15,902 nucleotides of DNA from Elusimicrobiota bacterium (lineage in GTDB: Bacteria > Elusimicrobiota > Elusimicrobia > Elusimicrobiales > UBA9959), in NCBI GenBank assembly GCA_037137395.1, contig JBAXKK010000062.1, positions 1-15,902 of the forward strand. The letters run 5' to 3'. The notes beneath the pieces are model-generated. The model was not told the origin of the DNA. It saw nothing but the letters and a program-made list of their open reading frames with translations, and did not search any database. Of this stretch, positions 8,121 to 10,520 are shown piece by piece; the stretch's first letter is position 1; each line of letters opens with the position of its first letter. Made by a program: the position numbers and the translations under genes.

Positions 8121-8121
8121 C

Positions 8122-8208
8122 AGGGTATAGGGGTCAGGGGTGAGGGTGCAGGGTAAGGAGTTCTTTACTCTTCCACCCTCAACCCTGTACCCTAAACCCT
8201 CTACCCTG
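8122..8208. repeat. AGGGNNN heptamer inverted repeat between convergent genes (possible bidirectional 3'-end structure)
   Basis: Plus arm AGGGTAT AGGGGTC AGGGGTG AGGGTGC AGGGTAA; minus arm, read after the smpB stop, AGGGTAG AGGGTTT AGGGTAC AGGGTTG AGGGTGG. Confidence 0.88.
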
Positions 8209-8211
8209 AGT

Positions 8212-8775: not shown

Positions 8776-8815
8776 AAGCCCGCGAGTTTCCTTCGGAGAA
8801 AATGCGGGGTATGAC
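8776..8815 (-). repeat. Isolated GC hairpin resembling an IS200/IS605-type terminal palindrome
   Basis: Minus strand reads GTCATACCCCGCATTTTCTCCGAAGGAAACTCGCGGGCTT, an imperfect stem with GTCA..ACCCC / GGGCTT ends. Confidence 0.4.
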
Positions 8816-8819
8816 AAGA

Positions 8820-8903
8820 GCGCGGGTGGCGGAACTGGCAGACGCGCACGGCTCAGGACCGTGTGACCGAAAGGTCTTATGGGTTCAACTCCCTTCCCGC
8901 GCA
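8820..8903 (+). tRNA. tRNA-Leu (CAG)
   Basis: Acceptor GCGCGGG/CCCGCGC plus discriminator A; D-loop GGAACTGGCAGAC; anticodon arm CACGG-CTCAGGA-CCGTG; long variable arm GACC-GAAA-GGTC; T-loop TTCAACT; CCA not encoded. Confidence 0.96.
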
Positions 8904-8910
8904 GTTTTTT

Positions 8911-8939
8911 AAAGGCCGGACAGCAAGTCCGGCCTTTTT
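8911..8939 (+). terminator. Rho-independent terminator after tRNA-Leu
   Basis: AAAGGCCGGAC-AGCAA-GTCCGGCCTTTTT. Confidence 0.8.
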
Positions 8940-8941
8940 AT

Positions 8942-9200
8942 TGTGCGGGAAGGGAGTTGAAGCCGACACCGGCGCGTCCGGTGGACAAAAAGCTCGCTCC
9001 GCGAACGTCAGCCGGTGCGGCCGGCTTTGGAGGAAGGAGCGGGGGTGGACTTGACGGCAGTCCTGCGTGATCAAGGACACAATTCAGTGATCAGGCGACT
9101 GGGGGAAAAGAACTTGATAATTGAATTGTGTCGCTTTGCTCCACCCCCTTCCCGCGCAGTTTTTAAAAGGCCGGACAATCAAGTCCGGCCTCTTTTTATT
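8942..9200. mobile_element. Putative miniature non-coding element at the tRNA-Leu 3' end
   Basis: Begins with an antisense copy of the tRNA 3' end (8942-8961) and ends with a direct copy of tRNA 3' end plus terminator (9139-9200; 19-bp exact core 9146-9164 = 8891-8909); several internal hairpins. Confidence 0.55.
9166..9197 (+). terminator. Second, diverged copy of the tRNA-Leu terminator
   Basis: AAAGGCCGGAC-AATCAA-GTCCGGCCTCTTTTT; insulates the pilin promoter that follows. Confidence 0.7.
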
Positions 9201-9201
9201 A

Positions 9202-9231
9202 TTGACAACATTGCGTACATTCATGTAAACT
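9202..9231 (+). promoter_or_regulatory. Sigma70-type promoter of pilin copy 1
   Basis: TTGACA-N18-TAAACT. Confidence 0.7.
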
Positions 9232-9330
9232 TATTGTTAATAAGAGCCTCTTGGATATTATTTATACATCATCCCGAGAGTCCCTTATCACATGTGACGG
9301 CACATGTATCATACCAGGAGGTTGTATATA

Positions 9331-9771
9331 ATGAAAATGAACAAAAAAGGCTTCACCCTGATCGAACTCATGATCGTGGTGGCCATCATCGGTATTCTTG
9401 CCGCTATCGCTATCCCGAAGTTTGCTGATCTCATCAACAAATCAAAGGAAGGCGCGACCAAGGGTGCCCTCTCAACAGTAAGAAGCGCCATTCAGATATA
9501 CTACGGCGACAACGAAGGCTGGTTCCCGACTGAAGCCACCTCGTTGACCAGCCTCACCACTGACGGCAAATATCTGAACTCAATACCTATGGCTAAGTTG
9601 CCCACCAGGCACGCTGACTCCGCTACCATCGCCAATTCCGTCACTGACGCGGCCGGTTGGACATATTATAATGCCCATACCACCACAGCTGAAGCTGCCC
9701 TTTGGGGTACGTTTGTTGCCAACTGTTCACATATGAACATCGCTGGCACAGCCCAGTGGACGTCGTTCTAA
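9331..9771 (+). CDS. Type IV pilin / GspG-like prepilin, copy 1
   Basis: Class III signal MKMNKKG|FTLIELMIVVAIIGILAAIAIP with E5; AGGAGG at 9316-9321, 9 nt before ATG 9331; own promoter and strong terminator suggest a major pilin. Confidence 0.93.
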   Translation: MKMNKKGFTLIELMIVVAIIGILAAIAIPKFADLINKSKEGATKGALSTVRSAIQIYYGDNEGWFPTEATSLTSLTTDGKYLNSIPMAKLPTRHADSATIANSVTDAAGWTYYNAHTTTAEAALWGTFVANCSHMNIAGTAQWTSF

Positions 9772-9791
9772 TAACGGGACTTTAGTTTGAG

Positions 9792-9828
9792 AAGGCCCCG
9801 TCCGGCTAAGGCGGACGGGGCCTTTTTT
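9792..9828 (+). terminator. Rho-independent terminator after pilin copy 1
   Basis: AAGGCCCCGTCCG-GCTAAGG-CGGACGGGGCCTTTTTT. Confidence 0.9.
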
Positions 9829-9833
9829 AATCT

Positions 9834-9977
9834 ATGCTTACCGTAACATTATTGGTCTTCGTTTTTGCCTTCGGTCTCCTGATCGGCAGCTTTTTAAATG
9901 TCTGCATTGCCAGGTTGCCGCAGGCTCTTTCCATCGAAACCCCTCTCGCCATTGACAACATTGGTATATTCATGTAA
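9834..9977 (+). pseudogene. pilD: Truncated 5' fragment of prepilin peptidase created by the duplication
   Basis: First 34 codons encode the same residues as the 10583 gene (MLTVTLLVFV...PQALSI), then read through the junction into promoter 2 and stop at TAA 9975-9977 (47 aa). Confidence 0.85.
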
Positions 9978-9980
9978 ACT
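9952..9980 (+). promoter_or_regulatory. Sigma70-type promoter of pilin copy 2
   Basis: TTGACA-N17-TAAACT. Confidence 0.75.
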
Positions 9981-10079
9981 AACAATTAGTAAGCGCCTCT
10001 TGGATATTATTTATACATCATCCCGAGAGTCCCTTATCACATGTGATGTCGCATGTATCATACCAGGAGGTTGTATATA

Positions 10080-10520
10080 ATGAAAATGAACAAAAAAGGC
10101 TTCACCCTGATCGAACTCATGATCGTGGTGGCCATCATCGGTATTCTTGCCGCTATCGCTATCCCGAAGTTTGCTGATCTCATCAACAAATCAAAGGAAG
10201 GCGCGACCAAGGGTGCCCTCTCAACAGTAAGAAGCGCCATTCAGATATACTACGGCGACAACGAAGGCTGGTTCCCGACTGAAGCCACCTCGTTGACCAG
10301 CCTCACCACTGACGGCAAATATCTGAACTCAATACCTATGGCTAAGTTGCCCACCAGGCACGCTGACTCCGCTACCATCGCCAATTCCGTCACTGACGCG
10401 GCCGGTTGGACATATTATAATGCCCATACCACCACAGCTGAAGCTGCCCTTTGGGGTACGTTTGTTGCCAACTGTTCACATATGAACATCGCTGGCACAG
10501 CCCAGTGGACGTCGTTCTAA
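10080..10520 (+). CDS. Type IV pilin / GspG-like prepilin, copy 2 (identical to copy 1)
   Basis: Same nucleotide sequence, RBS and class III signal peptide as 9331-9771. Confidence 0.93.
   Translation: MKMNKKGFTLIELMIVVAIIGILAAIAIPKFADLINKSKEGATKGALSTVRSAIQIYYGDNEGWFPTEATSLTSLTTDGKYLNSIPMAKLPTRHADSATIANSVTDAAGWTYYNAHTTTAEAALWGTFVANCSHMNIAGTAQWTSF

Follow-up and report, generated by a model that had tools for sequence, protein, structure and literature searches.

What lies behind the tRNA-Leu(CAG) gene of an Elusimicrobiota genome, where the 3′ end of the gene recurs, once inverted and once direct, on either side of a short, stem-rich sequence? The window (the whole stretch of 15,902 nucleotides that was analyzed) holds this arrangement immediately downstream of the gene, and a preliminary description, made from the letters alone, had read it as a non-autonomous tRNA-targeting element or a structured RNA. 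When the region was compared by BLAST with its own genome, two repeat families were identified. The element in the window is a copy of a core termed A1 here; a second core is termed A2.

Anatomy and soundness of the locus

The gene order is smpB (reverse strand), tRNA-Leu(CAG) (8820–8903, forward strand), the element, a duplicated type IV pilin gene and an ORF that we take to be prepilin-peptidase-like, although it has no NCBIfam match. T-loop positions 54–60 of the host tRNA correspond to 8884–8890, and the insertion junction, between positions 56 and 57, falls between 8886 and 8887. Every complete unit is ordered as tRNA, trailer, antisense arm, core and direct copy of the host tRNA tail. 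In the window, the trailer is an intrinsic terminator (8911–8939, forward strand) that is duplicated downstream. The antisense arm, a putative guide directed at host positions 54–73, follows on the forward strand at 8942–8961 and is, as had been described, the reverse complement of 8884–8903 with one G-U-compatible change: 19 of 20 positions agree, the single change gives a top-strand G·T pair, and when the 300 nt downstream were shuffled 2000 times, this match was reached in no case. In a repeat search, the pair extended to 23 nt at 91%. The last three nucleotides of the arm (8959–8961) match positions 54–56, which are absent from the direct copy and can be paired only with an intact target; thus, the arm spans the junction.

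The direct repeat reported at +255 was likewise recovered, with an exact 19-bp core (8891/9146) and, together with the terminator, 61 nt at 88.5%, but its true start and an insertion that splits it had been overlooked. Alignment to one of the nearest relatives (L151) places the start at 9111, which is T-loop position 57; the first four nucleotides of the copy (positions 57–60; 9111–9114, forward strand) are separated by a 31-nt insertion (9115–9145) from the remainder (9146–9200, forward strand), which comprises the tRNA tail from 61 to 73 and a second terminator (stem 9168–9191).

The element behind tRNA-Leu(CAG) is real and no assembly artefact. The source genome is a metagenome-assembled genome (MAG) of 174 contigs with 7.7% contamination, and unitigs from two runs of one study, either of which may be the source sample of the assembly, span the element with 0 differences (X1, 8879–9275; X2, 8874–9306). 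A run from another study covers 8804–8984 and 8989–9102 of the window. Against Rfam 15, the tRNA alone scored, with miRNA and sRNA matches far under their gathering scores, and identities as tmRNA, 6S or SRP RNA were rejected; the tmRNA of this genome sits on contig C8. A 137-aa ORF (9015–9428) crosses two nested insertions described below and was taken as spurious. When their sequence was read, the units at 21 loci from genomes, 40 from metagenomes and 27 found with the model showed no ORF inside, in keeping with the earlier statement that the element has no credible ORF or integrase.

Two further repeats lie in the neighborhood. A 749-bp tandem duplication (window ~9215–10520) yields two identical 155-aa type IV pilin ORFs (9304–9771 and 10053–10520) and also repeats the start of the next gene; in run X1, contig depth doubles across the pilin gene. 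At ~8121–8211, a fold-back repeat built of heptamers lies between two genes.

Fold of the core and nested insertions

The A1 core measures ~90 nt, with individual cores of 81–142 nt. A three-way junction is supported by a structure alignment of 28 uninvaded units out of 49 catalogued, in which 93% of cells are paired and 22 of 33 pairs show compensatory change on both sides, a level reached by none of 500 shuffles; slid controls gave 36–51% paired. It should be considered that this one alignment also supplied the folds and the mutual information from which the structure was derived, which favours it. Compensatory change across 22 pairs indicates that the fold is under selection. In the window, domain 1 (8962–9021, forward strand) consists of P1 (8962–8965/9018–9021), P2 (8967–8973/9011–9017), P3 (8975–8987) and a variable hairpin, P4 (~8991–9007). 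Domain 2 (9025–9110, forward strand) consists of P5 (9025–9028/9107–9110), which terminates exactly at the junction, and P6 (9035–9040/9095–9100), which holds tandem G·A pairs. All four stems named in the preliminary description exist as sequence, but two of them come from the nested insertions and the other two are not conserved pairings: where it had local stems of the CACCGG/CCGGTG type, covariation supports P1 and P2.

The two insertions belong to a separate repeat family of 25–55 nt (family B). B1, a long GTGGA..GACAC repeat of ~50 nt (9043–9094, forward strand), occupies the loop of P6, and B2, a short one of 31 nt (9115–9145, reverse strand), is the insertion inside the direct copy. The nearest relatives, L002 and L151, carry this unit minus both. 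The pairing of B1 with B2 follows from two copies of one separate family lying in opposite orientations and is therefore incidental. With these two insertions and an otherwise invariant C-G pair of P3 that is broken at 8987, the copy in the window is probably damaged.

Family B was found in 9 of 301 phylum genomes, all within the family of the source organism. Its members share GTGGA..GACAC with tandem G·A pairs, are often nested in A1, A2 and other repeats, and apparently enter at a GT/AC dinucleotide, as judged from a filled and an empty contig (C39 and C28). Further copies lie on source-genome contigs C26, C39, C65, C90 (within an apparent coding region), C109 and C110, at L152 and at G002:C15:177230. 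A viral scan for family B gave 0 matches. We considered family B as IS3-type ends from the shapes of inverted repeats and rejected this, no ORF having been seen between B pairs. At L053 and L174, a third small insertion lies within the T-loop part of the direct copy.

The core is asymmetric between strands. The top (transcribed) strand folds better in all 51 cores compared, and the motif GCGNAGC, which is stable as a DNA mini-hairpin, occurs 16 times on the top strand of these cores and 0 times on the bottom; this asymmetry of pairing and motif argues that the top strand is the functional one. G-U pairs make up only 9 of 923 cells, and the departures from canonical pairing are mostly tandem G·A. 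GGGA, GTAA and TTCG loops in the cores also suit RNA, and single-stranded DNA and RNA motifs are hard to separate bioinformatically (accessible part of PMC5737381). From these features, DNA is mildly preferred over RNA as the functional form.

Host matching, distribution and gain or loss

The earlier idea that the element carries its own target-matching arm was borne out by comparing arms with hosts. Among 44 unique pairs, which include related and hence non-independent genomes and come from a catalogue limited to anchors whose arm matched at 7/10 positions or more, the arm agrees with its own host in every pair at positions 55, 57 and 59 (44/44 each) and in 40/44 at position 60, all four misses being top-strand G·T. 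The arm also matches in two tmRNA hosts, whose TGC loop (G55) is unusual. Across 21 distinct hosts, 61 of 63 positions match, compared with a permuted mean of 35.6, and 0 of 20,000 permutations were as high. At 23 loci outside the training alignment, arms match at positions 57, 59 and 60 in 22, 23 and 22 cases, counts that are inflated by a model that rewards arm-to-copy pairing. The A1 arm is often mismatched at position 64, where a hairpin splits the arm of A2.

The boundary on the other side is equally regular. The direct copy begins at position 57 in 29/31 catalogued and 22/23 further units, and its length from there is 17–22 bp in 21/31 units and longer in the others. All hosts (44/44 and 23/23) read GGG at positions 51–53, compared with 19/43 tRNAs of the source genome overall. 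The unit, made up of the tRNA tail from position 57, trailer, antisense arm and structured core, enters at the 56/57 junction of tRNA and tmRNA T-loops after GGG, so that the host gene remains intact; its arm pairs with the copied tail. At least 14 tRNA species plus tmRNA are used by A1. The inverted ends differ from one host tRNA to the next, and the copies have in common no fixed terminal inverted repeats of the kind by which a MITE is recognized.

Copies of the core on other tRNAs with host-matched flanks, one of the checks proposed at the outset, were present in the source genome itself, where A1 occupies five loci (tRNA-Cys, Thr(CGT), Glu(CTC), Gly(GCC) and Leu(CAG)). The same genome has A2 behind Arg(TCT), Arg(TCG) and Val(TAC), and the direct copy begins at position 56 in all five A2 units listed. 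At L005, L006, L008, L193 and L194, a hairpin interrupts the A2 arm at the exact border of its anti-acceptor and anti-T-arm parts. The A1 model matched 21/151 phylum genomes in 18/62 genera, in line with a multi-copy, non-autonomous, tRNA-targeting element as first proposed. The core lies directly behind a tRNA at 19 of 21 genome loci (the other two are at contig starts) and at 32 of 40 metagenome loci. In a pattern scan of genome contigs, 40 of 61 matches fell outside Elusimicrobiota and were dropped as chance matches, being without the rest of the core. Scans with A1 returned a single chance match in viral sequences, none in phages and one weak coding match in plasmids.

Orthologous sites are variously filled, empty or tandem. 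Among 20 tRNA-Leu(CAG) loci obtained from 41 genomes searched, A1 is present at 4, A2 at 3, an arm alone at 2 and none of these at 11; six of these loci have the downstream pilin gene in common, and filled, arm-only and empty states occur among the six. Cores that are 0.90–0.93 identical sit on different tRNAs (L230/L216, L085/L157 and L081/L171). Tandem copies occur at L003, L027, L057, L183 and L230, mixed-core tandems at L167 and L183, and a second arm with a 3′-cut core at 7 of 27 loci. By a crude labelling, cores on the same tRNA resemble each other slightly more than cores on different tRNAs do (0.68 vs 0.66), so inheritance is vertical in part. The contigs from four runs showed no circle, empty allele or joint. 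Taken as a whole, A1 is probably a mobile element that retargets.

Several loci depart from the usual arrangement. An A1 arm and core without a detected upstream tRNA are present at L208, L275 (= L231), L147 and L165, of which L208 and L275 end in a tRNA-like sequence. Further cores of the tRNA-linked repeat (TLR) type follow tRNA-Leu(GAG), in tandem (C106:1–138 and the end of C37), tRNA-Asn and tRNA-Gln(CTG), with sites at C109:139–480 and C14:39635–39870. At tRNA-Leu(GAG) and tRNA-Asn, a direct copy of the T-arm comes after the arm and forms a hairpin, as at E. coli proK and serX.

Mechanism, alternatives and relation to known systems

The search for an enzyme covered the source genome, ten A1-rich genomes (Y1 in five) and, for GIY-YIG alone, 80 genomes of the family, and no GIY-YIG or Y1 gene enclosed by A1 was found across them; the longer, enzyme-encoding versions that had been suggested as a check were missing from the loci examined. 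A phmmer check of 104 neighboring ORFs for GIY-YIG identified no enzyme in the units. The A1 model R1 found no core at any GIY-YIG locus examined, and among 90 GIY-YIG and Y1 loci only one had an A1 match, with its Y1 gene outside the unit. The source genome has four Y1 genes, each with its own repeats. Small GIY-YIG genes do adjoin tRNA genes with duplicated 5′ or 3′ tRNA parts (end of C130 / C20:34953–35204 in the source genome; L121, L122, L129, L135, L136, L139 and L143), that at L122 lying within a tRNA-His T-loop-to-tail duplication. The source genome encodes an 84-aa GIY-YIG protein after tRNA-Asp, and a second GIY-YIG gene, upstream of tRNA-Ser(CGA) on contig C11, has an internal stop. 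These tRNA-linked genes are leads only.

We propose that A1 is a non-autonomous element of the TLR type (after the E. coli repeats compared below) that acts as a folded single strand, most likely of DNA, and is guided by base pairing. A putative nicking enzyme supplied in trans, of the HUH Y1 or small GIY-YIG/Ssn-like kind, would bind the core and cut at the junction, and the unit would be moved as a single strand or a circle, with the arm selecting its target through base pairing in the manner of the IS608 guide. Repeated entry would produce tandem and mixed arrays, and incomplete copying the 3′-cut second cores. After entry at a new tRNA, its arm might be rewritten by fold-back or template-switch correction and then be maintained by selection. 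For the mechanism as a whole, we consider the chances roughly even.

The nearest alternative is that the functional form is RNA, either a trailer or small RNA (like those of rrA/B/F) that tunes processing through competition for the T-arm, or an RNA intermediate that spreads with priming at a nick in the T-loop. Of the E. coli TLRs, those of the rRNA operons give processed transcripts that bind Hfq/CsrA (accessible part of PMC8144298). The rarity of G-U pairs, the patchy presence with its many cut copies and the position of the window's arm behind the terminator all argue against RNA, even though it is the top, transcribed strand that folds better and the minimum-free-energy fold of the precursor allows the arm to take over the T-arm and acceptor strand. 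Likewise, the four position-60 misses would all be G·U in RNA, and a fixed start with a variable length of duplication resembles, we infer, target-primed reverse transcription. In one RNA run (X15), the element was not covered, which weighs little because the organism was barely present and is no sign of silence. We regard an RNA form as unlikely, and the role in tRNA processing raised in the preliminary description is, given the patchy presence and that single run, unsupported.

A second alternative comes from the islands and prophages that tyrosine integrases insert at tRNA T-loops, which duplicate the 3′ part of the tRNA and keep the gene intact, span kilobases, carry an integrase and have neither an antisense arm nor a conserved fold. 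A1 also copies the 3′ part and leaves the gene intact, and a tail copied from a fixed T-loop position, which in A1 is 57, is an established island signature. A1 could accordingly be read as a minimal integrative element or island scar inserted by a tyrosine integrase in trans, with the arm as part of the att site. This is quite doubtful: unlike islands, the units have 81–142-nt cores without an integrase ORF between their ends, and neither an integrase nor a long version was seen at any locus read. Moreover, att sites need neither a covarying multi-stem fold nor an antisense arm that matches the host over as many as 22 nt, and a single core serves at least 14 tRNA species plus tmRNA.

Enzyme-free spread of a neutral, hairpin-rich sequence, by local duplication, quasi-palindrome template switching and T-arm gene conversion, would account for tandem and partial units as slippage and for those arms that continue into perfect fold-backs through the terminator (C109), and the shared T-arm consensus could seed ectopic recombination. 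We consider it quite unlikely, since compensatory change over 22 pairs marks a selected fold, the start is fixed to one base (57 in A1; 56 in the five A2 units listed) and the hosts are exclusively GGG-bearing. A fold-back chimera of library or assembly, which can leave an inverted copy beside a hairpin and might be suspected in a fragmented, partly contaminated MAG, is refuted by the spanning unitigs, the cover in another study and orthologues in other species, and its probability is negligible.

Should a nickase use the arm as its guide, the folded-strand mechanism proposed here would constitute a natural, programmable means of insertion that recognizes longer targets than IS608 does; if there is no guided nickase, A1 would still be an uncatalogued, phylum-wide structured motif with a covariation-supported fold, for which Rfam 15 gave no match beyond the tRNA at gathering score.

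The IS200/IS605 and REP/TnpA-REP elements are among the systems closest to A1: a hairpin has at its 5′ foot a short guide complementary to the bases before the insertion point, together with strand asymmetry and non-canonical pairs (accessible parts of PMC3201880 and PMC5934647). In IS608, this guide pairs with the cleavage site (accessible part of PMC3201880), and longer pairing, engineered to 12 and 17 nt, extends specificity (accessible part of PMC5934647). In A1, the 3′ end of the arm lies at the 5′ foot of P1 and matches positions 54–56, a guide-like relation at the level of sequence, and the arm as a whole resembles the extended pairing engineered into IS608. Unlike the natural IS608 guide, it is 10–22 nt long and varies with the host, and unlike IS200/IS605, A1 has no transposase in or tied to the unit, carries a host tail and has a far more complex fold. 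The small GIY-YIG genes beside tRNA duplications in the source organism's family recall the Ssn GIY-YIG nucleases, which act on single-stranded DNA and go with NTS/SRM hairpins (PMC11893778), but no A1 core was found at the GIY-YIG loci examined and SRMs are simple hairpins; in the main text of that paper, 'tRNA' occurs 0 times.

The closest counterparts are the TLRs of E. coli, known since 1978 (Egan & Landy 1978 and Rudd 1999, as cited in PMC8144298), which according to the accessible part of that paper comprise 22 repeats at ten loci, including rttR/tyrT-tyrV, serX, proK, lys and rrA/B/F, have as their last 18–19 bp the end of the upstream RNA, are transcribed and processed as small RNA at rrA/B/F and have no known function. 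Like A1, they lie behind tRNA genes, have a 3′ end that repeats the host from the T-loop on and occur as one to several tandem copies, some of them partial. When we compared seven K-12 regions, an arm matching its own T-arm across the junction was present at 6 of the 10 E. coli tRNA TLR loci (tyrT, tyrV, serX, proK, lysQ and lysV; 15–17/20), each scoring best with its own host among five compared, and proL and alaX, which have no repeat, scored 9–10/20. The four short lys TLRs have an arm of only ~9 nt. An inverted copy, which the preliminary description had placed outside the standard pattern of integrative elements, thus has a precedent in the E. coli TLRs.

The E. coli arm differs in reaching further 5′, mostly with a 2-nt junction bubble, and it closes a multi-hairpin fold of which the closing stem is the sole feature common with A1. 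The A1 model R1, run with filters off on six E. coli loci, gave a best E of 0.11 and thus no significant core similarity, and rttR matched 28 plasmid records with no annotated feature beneath any match. The accessible part of PMC8144298 makes no mention of an arm, inversion or mobility, and our literature search found no description of the element, its arm or its mobility, although Rudd 1999, Egan & Landy 1978 or supplements might describe the arm.

By the published definition, the window's element counts as a TLR on its sequence; it behaves as one and would best be classed with the TLRs as a sequence family new to them. A host-matched, junction-spanning arm in both Elusimicrobiota and E. coli K-12 makes the function and origin of TLRs testable in a laboratory strain. 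More tentatively, TLR-type elements from E. coli to Elusimicrobiota might form a naturally reprogrammable class of single-strand mobile elements, in which a nickase-recruiting fold is joined to a 10–22-nt junction-spanning guide that is rewritten for each target, with scarless entry into essential RNA genes; we think of this as possible rather than probable. The comparison suggests that A1 is a distant counterpart of the E. coli TLRs that hints at how they move.
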